Virus record (IMG/VR): IMGVR_UViG_3300029554_000003 | Coordinates: 13,064-77,063 of that record | Length of the DNA stretch: 64,000 nucleotides | Strand: one strand, 5' to 3' | Source: a virus | Taxonomy: Duplodnaviria; Heunggongvirae; Uroviricota; Caudoviricetes | Shown here: in pieces, positions 10,492-41,835 of the stretch | Layout of the letters: each line of letters starts with the position of its first letter | Position numbering within the stretch: position 1 is the stretch's first letter | Made by a program: the position numbers and the translations under genes | The notes under the pieces: model-generated | Database searches by the model: none | Told to the model about the DNA's origin: nothing | The model's input: the letters and a program-made list of their open reading frames with translations, nothing else

Positions 10492-10655
10492 TGAGTGCAG
10501 AAATTTGCGGAGACAATCGTTTCTTAGTGATTGAGCGAGCAAAAAACGATTTATTTGAAAGCACCAACATTGAAACGGCTCCAAGAGAAGTTGAAGTTAT
10601 TGATAGTATTCTTTTTCGTTGTTGGCAAATGGGCTGGTTAAAAAAATATGAATAG
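10491..10655 (+). CDS. Small hypothetical protein (54 aa)
   Basis: MSAEICGDNRF...FRCWQMGWLKKYE; TAATG-coupled; fills the gap before dnaE; not in ORF track. Confidence 0.65.
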   Translation: MSAEICGDNRFLVIERAKNDLFESTNIETAPREVEVIDSILFRCWQMGWLKKYE

Positions 10656-10665
10656 AGGGACAGAG

Positions 10666-13175
10666 ATGCCAATGACAAATCAATATCCCGGCAGTCTTCA
10701 TAACCACACAGATTTTTCAAATCTTAGGCTTAAAGATTCAATTAATACTGTAGACCGTTTAATGGATTATGCTTTGGAGCTTGGTCAAGACGTATTAGCC
10801 TTTACAGAACATGAGTCAGTAGCTAATGCAGTTAAAATTCAAGAAGCATATGAAAAGCGCAAACAAGATAATCCAAATTTCAAAGTAATTCTGGGCAATG
10901 AGATATACCTTGTCCGTAATGGTCTTAATAAGGATAATTTTAATCCAGAAGAAGATAGGTATTTCCACTTCATCCTTTTGGCTAAAAATGCAGAAGGTCA
11001 CAAACAAATTCGTGAGATTTCAACACGAGCTTGGATGCGCTCTTATATGGCTCGTGGTATGCGGCGAGTGCCAACATATTATCAAGACTTAATTGATATT
11101 ATTAGTAAAAATAAAGGCAATATTATTGCTTCAACCGCCTGCCTTGGTGGGCAATTACCAGCTTATCTTCTTAAATATAAGCAAACGCATGATAAAGCAG
11201 ACATTGAACAGGCTATCAAGTGGCTCAAAGGAATGGTTAAACTTTTTGGCAAAGGTAACTTTTTTCTAGAAATGCAACCTTCTCACAACGAAGAACAAAT
11301 TTATGTTAATAAATGGATTAAAAAATTATCTCATAAATTAGATATTCCATATATTATCACTTGTGATGCTCACTATTTAAAGAAAGACGAAGCATTTATC
11401 CATGAGACATACCTAAAGTCTCAAAACGGCGAGCGCGAAGTCTCTGAATTTTATGCAACTACTTATCTTATGGGGACAAAAGAGCTTGAAGGATTCTTTG
11501 AGTATTTTACCAAGGAAGATATTTATGCCGCATATGAGAATATTGAATATATTAAGAGTCAATGCGAAGATTATAATCTGAAAAAGCCGTTAAAGATTCC
11601 TCAGCTACCTTGGAAAGATAGTTATATTACAGATGAACAGGTAAAGTCTTTTCAAGATAAAATTCCTAATCTGAAATATCTAACCGAATCTGATTTTGAT
11701 GGTGATAAACTTCTTGGTCGATTGATTCTTCAAGGCATTCAAGAGAAAGAAGATTTACAGAATCAAGATGCCTACGATGAAATCAATGTTGAATTAGAGT
11801 CTGTTTACCAAAGTTCTCTTGTAAATAAAACGCACTGGTCTTCATATTTTCTTAATTTACAGAAAATTATTGATACCATTTGGGAAGCTGGTTCCATTGT
11901 TGGCTGCTCACGAGGAAGTGGCGGCGGCTTCCTTATCTTGTATGTTCTGGGCATTATTCAGATTAACTGTTTAAGGGAAACTACAAAGACCTTTCATTGG
12001 AGGTTCCTTAATCCCGCACGTGTCTCTGTCTTGGATGTAGACATTGACGTATCTGGTCTTCGCCGCAAGCAGATTCTAGATAAGTTTAGAGAAGTCTATG
12101 GCGAAGATAGAGTTTGCAATGTTCTTACTCTTGGTACAGAAAGCACAAAATCAGCTATTCTAAGTGCGGCAAGAGGTCTTGGAATTGATAATGATGTGGC
12201 ACAATATATTGCTTCTCTAGTTCCTTCTGACCGTGGTTTAATTCGTTCTTTGCATCAGTGCTACTATGGTGATAGTAAAGAAGGAATAAAACCAGTTATT
12301 CCTTTCGTCAATGAAATGAAACAGCGTCCAAAATTATGGGAAGTTGCTTGTCGAATTGAAGGTCTAATCTGTCGCTCTGGAATACACGCGGGAGGACTTG
12401 TCTTTGTTGATGAGCCATTCACGGAGACGGCTGCTCTTATGCGTGCTCCTGATGGGACTATTATTAGTCAATTTGACCTCCATGACCTTGAAAAATTATC
12501 ACTCATTAAATACGACCTACTTTCTGTCGAAGCAATGGACAAGATTCAGGTCTGTCTTGAGCTGTTAGTAAAATATGGTTATCTCAAATGGTCTGGAACA
12601 CTGAGAAAAACTTACGAAGATGCTATCGGTATTTACAATCTAGAACGAACAGATTCTAAGATGTGGAAAATGGTATGGGAACATAAGATTCAATCTCTAT
12701 TCCAAATGGAAAAGTCAAGTGGAATTCAAGGTATTGCACTGACGCATCCTAAATCTGTTGATGATTTAGCTACTCTTAATAGTGTAATTCGACTTATGGC
12801 GCAAGAGAAAGGTGCAGAAACGCCTCTTGAAAAGTATGCAAGATTTAAGAAAGATATTTCTTTATGGTATCAAGAAATGGACTCTTATGGTCTAACAAAA
12901 GAAGAGCAAAAGATTCTTGAGCCTGTTCTTAAAATCTCTTATGGCCTGTGCGAAAGTCAAGAGCGTTTCATGATGCTTGTCCAGATTCCAGAATGTGGTG
13001 GCTTTGACCTAAATTTCGCAGATAGGTTAAGAAAAAGCGTAGCCAAAAAACGTCCAGAAGAATACAAAAAATGTGAAAAAGAATACTTTAAACGAGTCCG
13101 AGAACAAGGCTTAAGTAAAAACCTTTGCAATTACGTATGGAACGTATGCGTAGCTACAAGCAGAGGATACGGGTT
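10666..13175 (+). CDS. dnaE: DNA polymerase III alpha subunit (family C), exon 1
   Basis: PHP LHNHTDFS, SRGSGGG, catalytic DVDID, GIHAGG, KYDLL; ends SRGYG-F. Confidence 0.92.
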
Positions 13176-14378
13176 TGAGAAAATTGGACCCTACACGCTA
13201 AAATATTTATCAATATGGTTTTACACTTTATGTTTCTAACCTTTAGCCAAGGAAGAACGTGTAAAGCTAACGAGGGTAAAATCTCGTGGCAAAATTCAAA
13301 AAGGTTATTTACTATATAATATATATGAAGGAGGTGACAATATGCTTTATATTTATAAGTTTACAAATAAGGTTAATGGAAAAATATATATAGGACAAAC
13401 CAATGATATAGAACAAAGAAAGCGTGGGCATAAATCTACAGCCTTCAATGAAAAATCGCATAATTATCATTGTGCTTTCCATAATGCAATTCGTAAATAT
13501 GGATGGAATAACTTTGATTTTGAAATTTTAGAAGAAATAGATGATAGTTTTGGAAGAGAATATTTAAACGAAAGAGAAATTTTCTTTATTTCATACTATC
13601 AATCTCTAACCTCTCAAAACGGTTATAATATTACAAAAGGCGGCGATGGCTGTGCGAAAGAGCAAAAAACTTTTGAAGAATGTGTAGCTTGCAGTAAAAT
13701 ATTTACTTTAAACGAAGTAATTGATATACAGACAATGCTCGTTGAAGGTTACGCCTATTTTGAAATTTATAAAAAGTATCCTAAATTGACAGATAGTTTT
13801 TTATCTAATATTTCGTCTGGTTTAAATTTTTATAATGAAAAACTAGAGTACCCATTAGGCAAAAATAAGACAAGGTTTTCAAAAGATACTCAAGATGAAA
13901 TTATATCTAGTATTAAAAGTGGAATCCAATATAGCGAAATTAAAGAAAAATTTGGGATAAGTACTGGATATATAAGTTCTATCAATTCTGGCAAAAGGTG
14001 GCATCGGGATAATGAAATGTATCCGTTATGCTTTAAGGCATGTGCCAATAATGATTTTGGACAAAAAGCAATACATGATATTATTTTTACAACTTTGTCG
14101 ATGGAAAAACTTGGAAAAGTTTATCATAAGTCTAAAGCAACTTTTACTGCAATTAATGTTGGTAGAAATCGTAACAACCCAGCTTTTAAATATCCATTGC
14201 GTACAAATACTGTAGAAAATCAAAAAATATGGAATGACCTTTTTGAATAATGCTGTATCGACTATCTTGGGTTAGACCGAGAGTACATTTACTATTGATA
14301 CGTAAGTGGAAACAGCGTGCGTTTTCTGGGTGGCACCCAAATTAAAAACGTAAGAAATAGTCAGTTATTAGTATAACG
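13176..14378 (+). mobile_element. Group I intron (1203 nt) with homing endonuclease in dnaE
   Basis: GGGTT|TGAG...TAACG|TAAT; IGS ATTGGACCC; P3 CACGCT(13194)/AGCGTG(14314); P7 GACTAT(14260)/ATAGTC(14357); splicing gives GYGFNLSHTLGY. Confidence 0.9.
13342..14250 (+). CDS. Intron-encoded GIY-YIG homing endonuclease
   Basis: YIYKFTNKVNGKIYIGQT; three C-terminal HTH-like repeats each ending YPL; RBS AAGGAGG. Confidence 0.9.
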   Translation: MLYIYKFTNKVNGKIYIGQTNDIEQRKRGHKSTAFNEKSHNYHCAFHNAIRKYGWNNFDFEILEEIDDSFGREYLNEREIFFISYYQSLTSQNGYNITKGGDGCAKEQKTFEECVACSKIFTLNEVIDIQTMLVEGYAYFEIYKKYPKLTDSFLSNISSGLNFYNEKLEYPLGKNKTRFSKDTQDEIISSIKSGIQYSEIKEKFGISTGYISSINSGKRWHRDNEMYPLCFKACANNDFGQKAIHDIIFTTLSMEKLGKVYHKSKATFTAINVGRNRNNPAFKYPLRTNTVENQKIWNDLFE

Positions 14379-15732
14379 TAATCTTTCACACACTTTAGGA
14401 TATTCGCTTGTAGCTCTTCAAGAAATGAATCTTGCTTACAAATATCCTATTATCTTTTGGAATTGCGCGAACTTAATTGTAGACAGCGGCACAATTGAAG
14501 GTATTGATGACAAAACATCTGATTACAATAAAATCGCACGTGCCGTCAATAAAAATAAATTAGCAGGAATTAAAGTATCGCTTATTGACATAAATAAATC
14601 AGAGCTATCTTTTACACCAGATGCAGAAACAAACACAATTCATTATGGTCTTGGCGGCTTACAAGGTGTAGGCAACGAAGTCGCGCAAATGATTATTGAT
14701 AATCGTCCATATGATTCAGTAGAAGATTTTATGGATAAGACAAAAGTAAATAAAACAGTTATGATTTCTCTAATCAAATCTGGAGCTTTTGACCAATTCG
14801 GAAAACGCAAAGATATTATGAAGCAATATCTATATACTACAATCAATCTCAAAAAACGTTTGACTATGCAGAACTTTAATGCCCTTATCGAAAATAGCCT
14901 TGTGCCGCAAAAGCTCAAATTCCAAAAGCAAGTATTTAATTTTAATAAAGGGCTGAAAAAAGATTGTAAATATAATGTAGATTATTTTGCATTAGATGGT
15001 GTTTACTATAAGTTTTATGTTAAGTTTTTCAACGAAGATAACATTGAACCAATAGACAATAAGTTATGTTTAAGCAAAAAGGCATGGAAAAAAGAATATG
15101 ATTCTGTAATGAGTACAGCCAAACAATATATTACTGATAATCAGCAGGAACTATTGGATAAGTTAAACAATAAAATGTTACAAGATGCTTGGAATAAATA
15201 CGCGGCAGGTACGATTTCTCATTGGGAAATGGAAAGTCTTGGTATGTATTATCATAAGCATGAGTTAATTAATATTGATAATTCATTATATGATATTGTA
15301 GATTATATGAAACTTGACCGCACACCTATTGTAGATTATACGTTCAGACGTAACGGCGCGGAAATTCCCATTTTCAAGACTTTTAAAATTGCGGGAACGG
15401 TTATTGCAAAAGATGAAATGCACTCCCAAATTACACTGCTTACCACTACTGGTGTAGTAGAAGTTAAAATGTCTAAAGAGTATTTTTCACAATACAATAA
15501 ACGTATTAGTGAAGTCAGACCAGACGGTACTAAGAAAATTATGGAGCAAGGTTTCTTCCAGCGTGGCATGATACTGGTATGCAATGGTATTAGACGTGGA
15601 GATACCTTCGTATTAAAGGCGTATAAGCGTAAAGGGAATGCACAGCATCAGCTATATAAAATTACGAAAGTGAATAAAGATGGCACCATAGAAATGACTA
15701 ATAACCGCTATGGCGAAAATGTTGACAATTAA
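14379..15732 (+). CDS. dnaE: DNA polymerase III alpha subunit, exon 2
   Basis: NLSHTLGYS..., HhH GLGGLQGVG, LIKSGAFD, E.ESLGMY, C-terminal OB fold. Confidence 0.9.
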
Positions 15733-29099: not shown

Positions 29100-31340
29100 T
29101 TAAATTTTTATCCATAACTTACAAGTGCTAGCGCTAGGCTGAGTTGAAGAAATGATTACCTCTTCTGGGCGCCAAGTATTAATATCAGAAGTAGGAGGTG
29201 TATAACCAAGAGCCGCAGTCACATTTGCCTTAGTAAGAGAAATAGTGCCACTACTATTGGTGATGTTAGAACCGACCTTAACGCCACCTAGAACACTTGA
29301 AGTAGCAGTTGGCAGGCTGTATACAGTGTTATTATCCGTAAGTGCGATGGTCGTATTGCCAGCCTGATTAAGAGTGAATGTACCCTTTGTCGCACCATTC
29401 TGTGTAATAGTAACAGTACCGTTGCCAACAGAAGGAATCGTAGGTTTACCGCTGATTTCACTCCAAGAGTAAGAAGGTTTACTTGAAGCCTTGGCCCAAA
29501 CGTGTACATCGCTAGCTGGCATAGAGGAAGGTCTACCAGAAACATTGTTCCACGCGACAGAGCCAGCTGAATTAGCATGGCTTACAGACTGTGAACCAAT
29601 GGTAGCAGAAGTGATAATTTCCTGTGAGTCGCCACCAACAGGTAGATAAGTTTTATTACTAGAATTTGTACCTGCATTAAAATTCGTATCGGTGTCATAA
29701 GAGAACACTAGACGTTCATCACCTTCTAAGTTACCAACAGTCCAAGCACCCTTAGAAGTCTTTTGACCTACAACTGGATTATATAAGTGCGAATTAGCAG
29801 TAGTACCGAAAGCGATAACGTTATTACGAGCTTGAATCCAAATGCCACCAGCACCACGATTGATTTTACCAGTCATAGTGCCGCCAGCAAGCGGTAGATA
29901 AGAGTGAGAGTGGCTTGCGGCAGCTGCGCCTACGTCCCCAGCAGAAAGCGTGATATTTGCGCTCAGTGCCTTACCGTTAACTGTGCGGCTAGTGGGAACA
30001 TACGAACCAAACTTCTCGTTTAAAATTTTACCTTGTGCCGCAGATAACGATTGGTCTGTATATGTAGAAGTAAGGTTATTCTGAATGCCACGCCAAGTAT
30101 TTGTGTCAGTAGAGTTAACTGTGACATTGCCGCTTGCGTCAGATGTTACTGTTGTCGCACCAGTACCCTTAATGGTAACTCCGCTACGGAATGTATTATC
30201 ATCTGTAACATTGATATGAGTATTGCTATTCGTAGTAGCAGCATTTGCGATACCACTTGCGGCGCCAGCTACGATGCGAGTAGTATAGTGTGTATTAGTA
30301 TCAATCGTTGGCGGCGTATAGCCTAAAGCAGTAGTAACATTAGCTTTAGTAAGTTCACCACGAATTGTTGCAGAAGACTTGTTTTCAACATTGCCAAGAC
30401 CTAAATCGGTCTTTGTGGTCTTGTGCGGATTGCCAGTAGTAGTAGAGTGATTATATGCGGCACGAGATTCATCACCATAACCAGCAGTACCATGAGTTGT
30501 ACCGAGAGTGATTGTATCTGAAATGACTACATATGTTGTACCACCCCAACGATAGATTTTATTCGTATCTAGAGCAGTATAAATCTTACCGCTTTCACCT
30601 TTAGTAGGGAATTTAGCAAATGAATCAAATTCCAGAACATCGTCTACGTAGCTAGGAAGATTTGCCGAATCAATTACACCGCTAAGACGAGCAACAGGAA
30701 GGTTGCCACTAATTTCGCCAATTGAATAACTGGGCTTTGAAGCTGCTTTAGCCCAAGCGTATACATCGCTAGCTGGCATACTCGTGGGAAAATCTGTAAT
30801 CTGAATCTTCGTATGCGTGTGGCTTGAATTAGCCTTTGCATTCAGCTTTGTATTGATTTCGCTCTCAGTATAATACCTGTCATCATGAGTGTGACCAGTA
30901 TTTGACTTGCCATCAAGCGCAGATTTAATTACCTTATTCTGTACAGGATTCGTTGAAGTAGTAGAAAGTTCTGCATCAATTGTAACACGATTTGAACCTG
31001 CGGCAACACCGTCAAGTTTAGCCTTATCTGCGGCAGACATAAGACCTGCGGCACTAGCAGTAGCATTGCCGTATACAGTATTTGAATCTGTAACATTAAA
31101 TGTACTGCCATCGCTACCCCTGAGAGTGATTGTACTACCGCTCTTGGTTAAGTTATAAGTTGTATTTGTATTGATATTGTCTTTAATCTGAATCAGAGAG
31201 GATGAAGAAATACCCATCCACAAAGTGCCAGTATCGGTGGCAACATATAATGCACCGTCCAATACTTTATTTTCGGCAGTAAGTGCTTTGATATTAGGTT
31301 CTTTATCTCTGATAAATTTTACTCTTGCTATCTTGCTCAC
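29100..31340 (-). CDS. Tail fibre protein
   Basis: GLMSAADKAKLDG, HTHDDRYY, YLPLAGGTMTG, LPSYVDDVLE fibre motifs; internal repeats. Confidence 0.8.
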   Translation of the reverse strand: MSKIARVKFIRDKEPNIKALTAENKVLDGALYVATDTGTLWMGISSSSLIQIKDNINTNTTYNLTKSGSTITLRGSDGSTFNVTDSNTVYGNATASAAGLMSAADKAKLDGVAAGSNRVTIDAELSTTSTNPVQNKVIKSALDGKSNTGHTHDDRYYTESEINTKLNAKANSSHTHTKIQITDFPTSMPASDVYAWAKAASKPSYSIGEISGNLPVARLSGVIDSANLPSYVDDVLEFDSFAKFPTKGESGKIYTALDTNKIYRWGGTTYVVISDTITLGTTHGTAGYGDESRAAYNHSTTTGNPHKTTKTDLGLGNVENKSSATIRGELTKANVTTALGYTPPTIDTNTHYTTRIVAGAASGIANAATTNSNTHINVTDDNTFRSGVTIKGTGATTVTSDASGNVTVNSTDTNTWRGIQNNLTSTYTDQSLSAAQGKILNEKFGSYVPTSRTVNGKALSANITLSAGDVGAAAASHSHSYLPLAGGTMTGKINRGAGGIWIQARNNVIAFGTTANSHLYNPVVGQKTSKGAWTVGNLEGDERLVFSYDTDTNFNAGTNSSNKTYLPVGGDSQEIITSATIGSQSVSHANSAGSVAWNNVSGRPSSMPASDVHVWAKASSKPSYSWSEISGKPTIPSVGNGTVTITQNGATKGTFTLNQAGNTTIALTDNNTVYSLPTATSSVLGGVKVGSNITNSSGTISLTKANVTAALGYTPPTSDINTWRPEEVIISSTQPSASTCKLWIKI

Positions 31341-38532: not shown

Positions 38533-38655
38533 TCTCGGCAATATCCCTTCTTCTCTACATAATCTAATATAATATGAAAATAATTTACATTTGATTTTAG
38601 GAATTTGCCCATAAAAAAATGAGGGAAACATAAAGCTTCCCTCGAATAAAATAAG

Positions 38656-39048
38656 TTAAACAGTTCTATGCCACACATAACAGTTTTGATAAACTGGTAA
38701 ATTATTGTGAGCTTTGCCACACCAGTTGATTTATTAAAAGTCTCATTTCGACTACAAGAGTTATCAGTAACCCAAGTCAATCTGTGACCCCTTTGAACAC
38801 CACCATTTACAAGGTGAGCGTAATATACCAATGTTGCATTTCCATGAATGTAAGCTGGCATCTCGTTGAGACTCAGCTTATGCGTTGCTTCGCCGCTGTT
38901 TGCTTGGCGGCTATAGACCCATACAGGAAAGTTTTCAATTGAGTCCATGTGCCGCCAACCGTAGGAAAGCAGGAGATGTTGCATTCATGCTTTGGTAGAT
39001 TAAGCCTACTGGATATACAATATCCATAAGGTTTACAAAATTACTCAT
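38656..39048 (-). pseudogene. Fibre-tip (gp10-C-like) cassette 3 with three frameshifts
   Basis: MSNFVNLMDIVYPVG..SPA / TVGGTWTQL / GEATHKLSLNEMP / GKAHNNLPVYQNCYVWHRTV in successive frames. Confidence 0.8.
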
Positions 39049-39092
39049 TTATATCTTTTCTAATTAAATAGAAAGAATATTATAAAATTTTC

Positions 39093-39560
39093 TTAGGCTG
39101 TTCTTCTATATATATTAACAGAATAGTGATATGGAATATAATTATTGCCTTTGCCAGCACTGTCGGTAGTGAAGGAGTGCGTATGCGCCCCATTGGTAGA
39201 TGTTCCTTGCCCACCAAAAGAACCAACAGAACCAAAATAATTACCAGCACCTTGAAGAACGTTGCCACCACCTGGACCGTACCATGCGATAATTCGTCCA
39301 TCAACATTGTGATTGTGGTTGCCACCACTATTAGTAGTACCAGTATGTTTATGTTCGGGCATTTGACTAGTAGCAATAGTCTTACTGCCGCCATAACTTG
39401 CAACTGCTGAAGAATATGTTGAGCCACTTGCAGCAATAACAGCATCTTTAATTTGCGTCCATGTGCCACCTACGCTACTCGCAGGAGAAACACTAGATGT
39501 ACTAAAATATATACTTCCTACTGGATAAATAATATCAAGAAGATTTACAAAATTACTCAT
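39093..39560 (-). CDS. Fibre-tip (T4 gp10 C-terminal-like) cassette 2
   Basis: YPVGSIY..SP...GGTW...QMP.H.H...PY....YRRTA. Confidence 0.8.
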   Translation of the reverse strand: MSNFVNLLDIIYPVGSIYFSTSSVSPASSVGGTWTQIKDAVIAASGSTYSSAVASYGGSKTIATSQMPEHKHTGTTNSGGNHNHNVDGRIIAWYGPGGGNVLQGAGNYFGSVGSFGGQGTSTNGAHTHSFTTDSAGKGNNYIPYHYSVNIYRRTA

Positions 39561-39639
39561 ATAACCCTCCTAGATTGAGGGCATTAACTAAGAGGAATGC
39601 CCCCACCAGAAGAGTATGATTTTTCATGGTATCTAACAT
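39553..39639 (-). CDS. Putative leader peptide of cassette 2 (28 aa, in frame)
   Basis: RBS GAAAGG; MLDTMKNHTLLVGAFLLVNALNLGGLYE; contains GGTGGGGG; stop overlaps cassette ATG. Confidence 0.55.
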   Translation of the reverse strand: MLDTMKNHTLLVGAFLLVNALNLGGLYE

Positions 39640-39683
39640 CTTCAATTACCTTTCTTAGATAATTTGATATTAGATTTTAGATT

Positions 39684-40070
39684 TTAAGCAGTTCTTACCC
39701 ACACTTTACAAGCATATGAATAAGGAATATAATCTTTTCCTTCTCCTGTTAGCGCAGAATCGCCAAATTCTCTAAGGATTCTTCCTGAATGGTATCTTCC
39801 ATAATATAATCTATCAGTAGTTGCATTAGTACCATCCCATCCGCAACCAAGATTATTGACCAATGGATGATTATGCCTAGGCATTTGACTAATACTAATT
39901 GTTTTACTACCAGTATAGCCAGAAGTATCCTTATATGCCGCAATACAGGCGCCATCTTTAATTTGCGTCCATGTGCCACCGATAGACGTTGCAGGCGAAA
40001 CAGTACTGGTAGTGATATGCATACTATGTACAGGATAAATAATATCTAAAAGATTTACAAAATTGCTCAT
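39684..40070 (-). CDS. Fibre-tip (gp10-C-like) cassette 1
   Basis: MSNFVNLLDIIYPV...GGTWTQI...QMP.H.H...WVRTA. Confidence 0.8.
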   Translation of the reverse strand: MSNFVNLLDIIYPVHSMHITTSTVSPATSIGGTWTQIKDGACIAAYKDTSGYTGSKTISISQMPRHNHPLVNNLGCGWDGTNATTDRLYYGRYHSGRILREFGDSALTGEGKDYIPYSYACKVWVRTA

Positions 40071-40187
40071 TATTCAACCTCCTTATTTAGGAGGTCGTCT
40101 AAAATCATAATATCAAATTGATTTATAGATGATAAGCTACCGCAGTAGCCCCCCCCCTAGAGAGGTCAATTCATTAAACTTATTCAC
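40070..40187 (-). promoter_or_regulatory. Poly-G leader ORF plus anti-SD hairpin of cassette 1
   Basis: AAGGAG-6 nt-GTG(40187); G9 at 40149-40157; GACCTCCT-AAATA-AGGAGGTT hairpin at 40076-40096. Confidence 0.6.
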
Positions 40188-40227
40188 ATAAAACTCCTTT
40201 TCTTTCTCAGAATTATATTCTATATCT

Positions 40228-40266
40228 ATATGAAAAAAGGGCAAAACCCGTAACAGGATTTTGCCC
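40228..40266 (-). terminator. Terminator hairpin doubling as GGGCA motif copy
   Basis: GGGCAAAATCC-TGTTAC-GGGTTTTGCCC-TTTTTT-CATAT. Confidence 0.8.
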
Positions 40267-40275
40267 AAAGTTATA

Positions 40276-41835
40276 TTAGATTTGTACCCACAGTTTAACG
40301 TGTTCTTCTGTTGGCTTGCTCATGCCAACATAGACAGTGCCAACATCATCCGCAAGTTTGCCATTGGTCACAGCTTTGCTTGCAATTTTGCCTGATGAAA
40401 CAGCTCCATCGGCAATCTTAGCCGCAGTCACTTTACCGTTACCAATAGTAGTAGCCATTGTGATAGGACTTGCCGTATTGAAACTTGTAGCTGATGCTGT
40501 AATATCTCCGCTCAATGCGACAGTATTATTAAATTTGTTTGCAGATTGAGCATTTGTTGCGCTAGTCGCATTGCCTTCTACATTGCCAGTAAGAGTACCG
40601 ACAATTTTATTAGCATAAACATAATTCCACTTGGCGTTAGAAGAACCAAGAGAATAAGAATTGGTAGCGCTAGGAACAATATTCTGACCGGTTAGCGAAC
40701 CTGTCAGTGTGCCGCCAGATAGCTTTAAATAACTCGTATCGTGATTGTGGCTAGCAGTTGCAGCACCAATATTAGCACAAGTAAGATTTACATTGCCTGT
40801 GCGGTAGCTACCTTCCGCATTGCCTTTAACACCAGTGACCTCACCAGCGACTTGCCATGTACCGTCTCCACGGAGAAATTTGTTTTGACTTCCAGCCGCA
40901 GGAGCAGGAACAAGACCAGAGTGACCAGCTGCATTAGCGGTAGCACCTGTCATGACTTCTGGTTTAGTTGTATCTATATCAAATGACACATCAGTAGAGC
41001 CATTAAAACTAAATGTCCGTTTGCCAGTAGCTGATGTTGTTCCATATGTCACTCCAACACTTAAACTATGACCGACTTTACCAGCAGTAGTTGCGTTGGT
41101 GGCATTGTCGGCATTAGTTGCATGACTTGCATTAAGTGCTGTACCAGCTTTATACTCTTGGTATCCTGCGTCAGAATTTAGCTTGGTATCATCAACAACA
41201 ATATACATAATGCCAGTATCGTCTTGAATGACGCTATCGCCAGTCTGCACTCGCTGATTAGTTAGCTGAAAGCGTGCTGTTTTATTAGCGACATGAACCA
41301 ATCGTTCCAACGCACCTTGCGGAATAGTGCTTAGAGGTAACACCCCAGTGACACTCGCAGCATCAATTGATGGAATTGTAATTGAAATATTACCAGAACC
41401 ATCAAAATTAGCACTACCTGTACCACCATTGTTGCCGCCCTTAACACTGATTGAACGTGCGGTCTTTAGTTTTGTAGCAGTGTCGGCGTTACCAGTGACG
41501 TTACCAGTAAGATTTCCCGTAAATCCGCCATTGCCAGTAATCCTGCCTGCGAATGTAGTAGGAGACTTAACTGATTGCGCGTTAGTAGTTGTCTTGTCTA
41601 GCTTATTGTTCGCATTGTCATTGACAGCTTTAACTGCTTTTGGTGTAGCGGCGACAACGCCTGTGGCCGCATTATCTGTTGCATTTGTTGCGTCTGAAAG
41701 CCAGACTTCACCACGCTTATTATCGGTAGCATCTGGCGCAACGTAAATCGGCCTATATGTTTTAAGTGTAGGGTCATACACCTTAGCAACAAAATTATTT
41801 TTCATCGTAGAATCATTTGGATTACCTTTAGCCAT
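40276..41835 (-). CDS. Tail fibre protein
   Basis: AATPKAVK, GNADTATKL.TAR, GLVPAP..G...FLRGDGTW, VT..KIADGAV; ends KLWVQI. Confidence 0.85.
   Translation of the reverse strand: MAKGNPNDSTMKNNFVAKVYDPTLKTYRPIYVAPDATDNKRGEVWLSDATNATDNAATGVVAATPKAVKAVNDNANNKLDKTTTNAQSVKSPTTFAGRITGNGGFTGNLTGNVTGNADTATKLKTARSISVKGGNNGGTGSANFDGSGNISITIPSIDAASVTGVLPLSTIPQGALERLVHVANKTARFQLTNQRVQTGDSVIQDDTGIMYIVVDDTKLNSDAGYQEYKAGTALNASHATNADNATNATTAGKVGHSLSVGVTYGTTSATGKRTFSFNGSTDVSFDIDTTKPEVMTGATANAAGHSGLVPAPAAGSQNKFLRGDGTWQVAGEVTGVKGNAEGSYRTGNVNLTCANIGAATASHNHDTSYLKLSGGTLTGSLTGQNIVPSATNSYSLGSSNAKWNYVYANKIVGTLTGNVEGNATSATNAQSANKFNNTVALSGDITASATSFNTASPITMATTIGNGKVTAAKIADGAVSSGKIASKAVTNGKLADDVGTVYVGMSKPTEEHVKLWVQI

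Follow-up and report, generated by a model that had tools for sequence, protein, structure and literature searches.

Variable G tracts in short leader frames as a likely translational switch for predicted fibre-tip genes of a tailed phage

Translational coupling is well known from the coat and lysis genes of phage MS2, where a ribosome that terminates melts a hairpin and so makes a hidden start accessible. Kastelein 1982 and Berkhout 1987 are cited for this system in PMC5009743. The locus described here is like this case in that a terminating ribosome would open a start; MS2 has, however, no heritable repeat and makes no selection among paralogues. Repeats that shift the frame of a leader are found in Streptococcus gallolyticus: according to the accessible part of the Pil1 study, a GCAGA repeat shifts the frame of a leader ORF; in its longer version the leader has its stop on a terminator hairpin, which the ribosome melts, and the downstream surface genes are turned on (Danne et al. 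2014, PMC3894217). Among phages, Fletchervirus is described in the excerpts available as carrying G runs of 7–11 nt in genes for receptor-binding proteins (RBPs), which vary RBP display (Sorensen 2021, Cell Rep 35:109214, via PMC12633550, PMC11959909 and PMC11868660; cited in PMC12823448 and PMC10877375). Slippage-prone homopolymers have also been treated as phage contingency loci that serve bet-hedging (Gomez, Barrick, Waters 2025, PMC12633550); in the accessible portion of that article a frameshift inactivates the repeat-bearing gene, repeats are under-represented in coliphage tail fibres, and the term "translational coupling" occurs 0 times.

In a window of 64,000 nt (the whole stretch of phage DNA that was analysed) there is a tandem array of predicted tip genes preceded by short leaders with G tracts, which we consider, with good confidence, to be a heritable phase-variation switch: the length of the G run sets the frame of the leader, and only the frame coupled to the start would yield the predicted host-binding tip. 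Replication slippage (slipped-strand mispairing) would alter the length of the G run, and at the new length the leader frame would end either early (OFF) or on the hairpin-folded start of the tip gene (ON). A ribosome terminating on this start would melt the hairpin and re-initiate (translational coupling). The products would be interchangeable fibre tips, and their exchange would alter host range. In an in-gene variant the run lies in the end of a tip gene n, so that n would be left intact or the next gene, n+1, would be coupled; in some of these loci a third frame would couple n+2.

The likeness to Fletchervirus is that phage G runs vary the display of receptor-binding proteins, a role that is predicted here. 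As far as the excerpts on Fletchervirus go, the tract there lies in the RBP gene, whereas the tracts of the window lie in separate leader ORFs and the tip gene stays intact; in relatives the in-gene tracts are found at the 3' end of the tip gene, and a shift of frame there is predicted to turn on the tips that follow. With Pil1, as its accessible part presents it, the locus shares a repeat in a leader ORF that moves the stop onto a hairpin, a likeness seen here in sequence layout alone. Pil1 is, however, a bacterial system, in which GCAGA repeats and a transcription terminator make up a single switch for an operon. The phage arrays have homopolymeric G, hairpins without a U tail that occlude the Shine-Dalgarno sequence (SD) or start, and one switch per gene in series, and they also have either/or and three-way forms. 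The contingency loci of PMC12633550 differ, in the portion of the text at hand, in that the gene bearing the repeat is the one inactivated.

The phage genome around the window comprises 141 kb with 38% GC and is split by strand, with the replication genes on the plus strand and the tail and lysis genes on the minus strand. The DNA polymerase is split (863 aa and 435 aa, window 10648–15732) around a GIY-YIG homing endonuclease (13342–14250), possibly an intron. Close relatives come from gut-type metagenome assemblies. The catalytic part of the endolysin has its best match, with 65% identity, in Eggerthella phage PMBT5, which is a weak hint at an Eggerthella-type host; a search for the cassettes among cultured phages gave no match, and a GTDB search for prophage loci found none. 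The array in the window consists of the fibre gene, a terminator-like hairpin, two intact stand-alone Gp10_C genes and one frameshifted third copy. Its features are the following:

40276..41835, minus strand: tail fibre, 519 aa (Pfam Phage_fiber_2 and PHROG tail fibre matches)
40239..40266, minus strand: intrinsic-terminator-like hairpin, 11 bp plus T run, between fibre and tip array (terminator scan; also in relatives)
40194..40200, minus strand: SD of leader 1, AAAGGAG, 6 nt 5' of GTG 40187
40137..40187, minus strand: leader ORF 1 in its assembled G9 form, 16 aa, ending 69 nt short of the cassette 1 ATG, predicted OFF
40149..40157, minus strand: G9 tract, putative slippage site
40070..40148, minus strand: 3' half of leader 1, a single open frame to a TAA overlapping the cassette ATG (TAATG), the other two frames closed
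40076..40096, minus strand: hairpin predicted to sequester the SD of cassette 1 (opening cost 14.8 kcal/mol)
39684..40070, minus strand: tip cassette 1, stand-alone Gp10_C, 128 aa (PF21939 above cut-off)
39553..39639, minus strand: leader ORF 2, 28 aa, SD 39653–39648, stop at +5 of cassette 2, predicted ON
39600..39607, minus strand: interrupted tract GGTGGGGG of leader 2, a G8-ON allele with one G changed to T
39564..39582, minus strand: hairpin over the SD of cassette 2 (opening cost 8.1 kcal/mol; consensus fold)
39093..39560, minus strand: tip cassette 2, Gp10_C, 155 aa (PF21939 above cut-off)
39051..39080, minus strand: 12-bp AT-rich hairpin over the SD of a tract-less "default" tip start (folding)
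38656..39048, minus strand: tip cassette 3, frameshifted pseudogene, 37 aa (comparison with relatives)
38621..38643, minus strand: terminator-like hairpin closing the array (terminator scan)

All coordinates in the initial annotation of this DNA held on recheck. Leader 1 has, as had been described, its own SD, starts with GTG at 40187 and runs through G9 at 40157–40149. With G9 it stops after 16 aa and 69 nt short of the cassette, with G10 after 21 aa and 55 nt short, and with G8 or G11 it reaches 38 or 39 aa and ends in TAATG at −2; G5 gives the same ending (37 aa). In L021 the GTG is ATG with the frame unchanged. Not noted in the initial annotation is an ATG-TGA start-stop at 40189–40184, which overlaps the leader 1 GTG and persists in most relatives. 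The hairpin of cassette 1 has the arms GACCTCCT (40096–40089) and AGGAGGTT (40083–40076), to which RNAfold adds a ninth base pair. Leader 2 is likewise as first read, with 28 aa and an interrupted tract in frame. This tract lies at 39607–39600, and the stop at +5 (ATGAG-TAA) is inside codons 2–3 of cassette 2, the hairpin of which has the arms GCCCTC (39582–39577) and GAGGGT (39569–39564). Read in this way, cassette 1 would be OFF, a single slip away from the ON state; cassette 2 would be ON and slow to switch, and cassette 3 would be dead. The frameshift of cassette 3 is common to L014–L017 and L193, and the cassette is intact in L013 and L021.

The two intact cassettes have scores of 29.6 and 47.2 bits against Gp10_C (PF21939; gathering cut-off 27), and the cassette profile matches solved chains (C-terminus of T4 gp10, PDB 7z47 chain I) with E values of 2e-4 to 6e-3. 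That T4 gp10, a baseplate wedge protein, is among the closest solved relatives was counted against the receptor-binding reading. The cassettes have conserved ends around a hypervariable middle. Here Gp10_C stands alone and in tandem arrays; most of the other phages fetched carry it as the C-terminus of a longer protein. These features suggest that the cassettes are likely receptor-binding fibre tips. Their docking partner is likely the 519-aa fibre, which ends in the motif VYVG..P....KLWVQI; the tract-controlled extension modules of relatives have this motif at their C-termini. A domain split between the KLWxxI end of the fibre and the N-terminus of the tip was considered and rejected (0/83 upstream segments in fused homologues).

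The relatives were sampled in two ways. A query with the fibre gave 76 loci, of which 26 (L012–L037) were nearly full-length and were used, and the other 50, matches to short segments, did not enter the census; in metagenome contigs scanned for a motif there were 60 further loci (L168–L227), which overlap with one another and in part with the first set. Duplicates were removed within a contig and kept across the two locus sets. It should be noted that all P values are optimistic because the relatives are close kin and the data sets partly overlap. Each array in the relatives comprises 1–6 modules, which are either Gp10_C tips or extension modules ending in the KLWxxI motif of the fibre. The extension modules, which in L012–L037 lie just after the fibre gene, are tract-controlled, have 131–419 aa and end in the motif S..QP....CKLWIKI. 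An end of this type is also found in the fibre and in a 746-aa protein at window 29100–31340, and the common motif suggests a chain of optional fibre segments.

G/C runs are concentrated in the arrays. Only two places in the 141-kb genome have G/C runs of at least 6, the G9 of leader 1 and one distant C9/G7 inverted pair; and in the 26 relatives there are 68 G/C runs of at least 7 in 66,048 nt of tip arrays (the span between the fibre and the next conserved gene) versus 0 in 281,197 nt of flanks. The distant pair (G000:C1:97735–97830, outside the window) is a C9-TATA-G7 hairpin in a GC-rich patch following two GTCGGTAATTTGT copies. Both layouts, leader and in-gene, recur in the distant contigs L103 and L104, at 9/9 scorable tracts. 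The switch is no general property of the Gp10_C domain: among the other Gp10_C loci fetched (the best 80 of 550), the stand-alone arrays, such as those of L112 and L140, contain no G run of at least 7. An unrelated phage of 30% GC has two tandem Gp10_C domains, and a G8 (L145:3970–3977) lies just 5' of the second one and in its frame.

The tracts vary in length. Between relatives with identical 20-nt flanks the lengths differ at 17/37 G sites versus 2/59 A/T sites, the A/T control runs being mostly inside coding sequence and hence constrained. Pure tracts range from G5 to G11, plus one G20, with G9 as the mode (91/174); for the tract of leader 1, variants of G5–G13 occur in relatives. Thus two of the features by which simple-sequence-repeat (SSR) contingency loci are recognized, a slippage-prone homopolymer concentrated at the locus and length variation among close relatives, are found here. 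Leader 1 is G9-OFF in 20/41 occurrences and ON in 9/41. The initial annotation had allowed that G9 might be a sequencing error for G8, which can be set aside because G9 is the commonest natural allele of leader 1. Leader 2 is in relatives a pure G7–G10 tract in 13/20 occurrences and GGTGGGGG in 7/20, which supports the description of cassette 2 as "stabilised ON" for its own lineage. As a general rule it fails: alleles with a longest run of at least 7 (pure) are ON in 21/76 cases, and those with a longest run of at most 5 (short or interrupted) are ON in 9 and OFF in 8 (n=17), so that interruption is no general sign of stabilisation. Two more decayed alleles, which the search pattern had missed and which were read by hand, are in frame (L018/L019/L174 and L029/L031/L192/L213). 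When four contig sets were compared, one 73-kb contig (depth 159) was found to end at a G tract and one other contig was 2 letters shorter at 40149; as a sign of heterogeneity these cases are suggestive at most, since repeats also break contigs.

The frame around these variable tracts is conserved. From 150 leader tracts 89 distinct 5' halves were obtained (4 of them from L103/L104), and 84 have an SD, a start and an open frame; counted by family, this holds for 12/16 versus 0.6 expected from shuffles. On the 3' side, 13/15 distinct halves have exactly one frame that ends at −4 to +8 of the next start and two that close earlier (2.2 expected), which gives P ~1e-11 if the halves are independent, an optimistic value because some of them share ancestry. 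The other two miss by overshooting the start, by +17 and by +22/+35. In all 20 distinct variants of the 3' half of leader 1 the coupled frame has 0 stops and the other frames have 3–6; the amino acids vary, and the identity of the leader peptide is probably of no consequence. The frame-dependent switch that the initial annotation had proposed is therefore supported by comparison: the coupling frame, SD and start, and hairpin are conserved in relatives, and the length of the tract is variable. In L026 and L033 the leader at the tract before gene 1 has a stop that comes no later than the tract, so that the tip would be locked OFF. In L012–L037 the 5' and 3' halves of leaders are swapped at the G tract, for example a 5' half encoding MNNTFL with three different 3' halves; judged from such exchanges, the G tract may also be a recombination junction.

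The starts of the tip genes are predicted to be sequestered in a conserved structure. The opening cost, i.e., the folding energy needed to open the region −16 to +2 of a start, has a median of 9.4 kcal/mol for leader-type (n=50) and 13.0 kcal/mol for in-gene-type starts (n=12) as compared with 4.9 kcal/mol for 109 other starts of the genome, which served as controls; the values in the window are 14.8 (cassette 1) and 8.1 kcal/mol (cassette 2). In alignments, pairing is kept in 93–100% of cells, changes being one-sided, with two-sided changes in at most 1 pair per family, so that covariation is weak. For example, the hairpin of cassette 1 keeps its pairing in 21 variants with no two-sided change, and the consensus for cassette 2 (9 variants) has 96% of cells paired. 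In L022 an in-frame deletion takes out the 5' arm, and the opening cost drops to 4.9. The terminator scan found no intrinsic terminator at the tip-start hairpins, which lie over the SD or start and lack a U tail. It should be noted, however, that tract-less "default" starts are equally occluded (median 11.8 kcal/mol, n=12), and only 6/28 have an alternative frame that reaches them; a hairpin alone thus does not imply dependence on a tract. One possibility is that default starts are opened by termination of the previous tip ~45 nt upstream. The AT-rich hairpin over the default start of the window also occurs at the corresponding junction of relatives; the SD of this start is weakened in the window (AAAAGA versus AAAGGA in relatives).

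Opening cost is flat with tract length (12.1–13.8 kcal/mol from G5 to G12). This excludes that tract length acts through RNA structure alone, and the tract must therefore act through the frame. Promoter spacing was also considered and rejected: a promoter-like site at 40244–40217 precedes the tract, and promoter hits are about as frequent as chance predicts (9 versus 7.7). The stop that overlaps or abuts the next start, by which translational coupling is recognized, is present in 13/15 leader halves and in 60/60 in-gene tracts.

The picture that emerges from the relatives is wider than that of the initial annotation in that it includes putative in-gene toggles and three-way selectors. In-gene tracts occur in many relatives and are absent from the window; the run is part of glycine codons, some 20 codons from the end of tip n. 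At all 60 of these tracts one frame completes tip n and another ends on the start of n+1, a layout found in 40/40 distinct segments versus 6/28 tract-less control junctions at the same position (null probabilities for coupling 0.06–0.69 per family). At 10/60 the third frame stays open through n+1 as a whole and reaches a TAATG on n+2; these ten tracts are assembled in the n state once, in the n+1 state 4 times and in the n+2 state 4 times, one being unscored. The frame that has to be crossed, the junk +1 frame of n+1 (~135 codons), is free of stops in 10/12 genes that precede an n+2 start versus 0/114 other tips, each of which has at least 2 stops in this frame. It is open in 3/7 similar genes without n+2, and in L212 and L219, where the upstream tract gene is missing, it has 2 stops. 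The 19 genes tested are 54–100% identical (median 66%), and under a null of synonymous recoding the probability of an open +1 frame is at most 0.008 per gene. The stop-free junk frame is the strongest sign that passage of ribosomes is under selection. It thus appears rather likely that a G run at the end of tip n picks one of three paralogous tips, namely n, the occluded n+1, or n+2 via a stop-free junk frame kept by selection, and that together with the leader switches this forms a combinatorial, recombinase-free tropism selector with mutually exclusive outputs.

Other explanations have to be weighed against these findings. If the frame were changed at the level of the RNA or the ribosome, by transcriptional slippage or ribosomal frameshifting, the tract would be a dimmer that gives a little of each tip and virions with mixed tips. 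Low-level frameshifting on a G run is known for herpes thymidine kinase (as given in the accessible part of PMC5009743), and a modal leader 1 allele that is OFF could suit a design based on leakage. We nevertheless regard a dimmer as improbable since genomic lengths differ among near-identical relatives and all three frames are present as assembled states; leakage could add to heritable switching, yet it leaves the length variation unexplained. Very unlikely is also that the chief role of the G runs is in recombination, as hot spots or as marks of the junctions at which cassettes are shuffled, the leaders being remnants of ordinary coupling without switching. Leader halves do recombine at the tract and the order and content of cassettes vary widely, but shuffling predicts neither coupling of one frame in three nor junk frames without stops over ~135 codons, nor their decay in L212 and L219, which lack the upstream tract gene, and it is already largely contradicted by the stop counts of the junk frames.

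Slightly less credible still is control of transcription by leader translation, where the coupled frame would block Rho-dependent or hairpin termination. There is the precedent of Pil1 with a similar leader-frameshift logic (in the accessible part of PMC3894217), and OFF states leave 55–70 nt untranslated; against it, the hairpins lie on the SD or start, lack a U tail and are absent from the terminator scan, the stops are within a few nt of start codons, and several serial genes under independent control fit control of initiation better. That G9 and the length differences are homopolymer errors of sequencing or assembly is hardly conceivable: the G20 run in L028 looks like an assembly artefact, but G9 is the commonest length across many separate assemblies, and the enrichment, the leader layout and the open junk frames are independent of exact length. 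A heritable, frame-setting G tract coupled to occluded tip starts thus is the explanation that we prefer.

Repeat-driven phase variation is as such known, both as polyG in Fletchervirus and as the leader of Pil1. New is the combination of leader and coupling in a phage, chiefly in its either/or and three-way forms; no description of tract-controlled translational coupling of phage tip genes was found in titles and the beginnings of abstracts, a scope that takes in few subscription papers.

If the switch operates as proposed, phages vary their host-recognition parts by a mechanism that is invisible to gene callers. With tip genes that appear intact and leaders below the size that is annotated, host range would not be readable from gene content alone; it would instead be predictable from tract length modulo 3. 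In the in-gene form one homopolymer would provide mutually exclusive two- or three-way choices without a recombinase, and the selector, compact and stochastic, is one that synthetic biology could use. An overlapping open frame of ~135 codons would find its explanation in selection on the passage of ribosomes rather than on a protein. And the G tracts would constitute a third route to tropism switching, beside invertases and diversity-generating retroelements.
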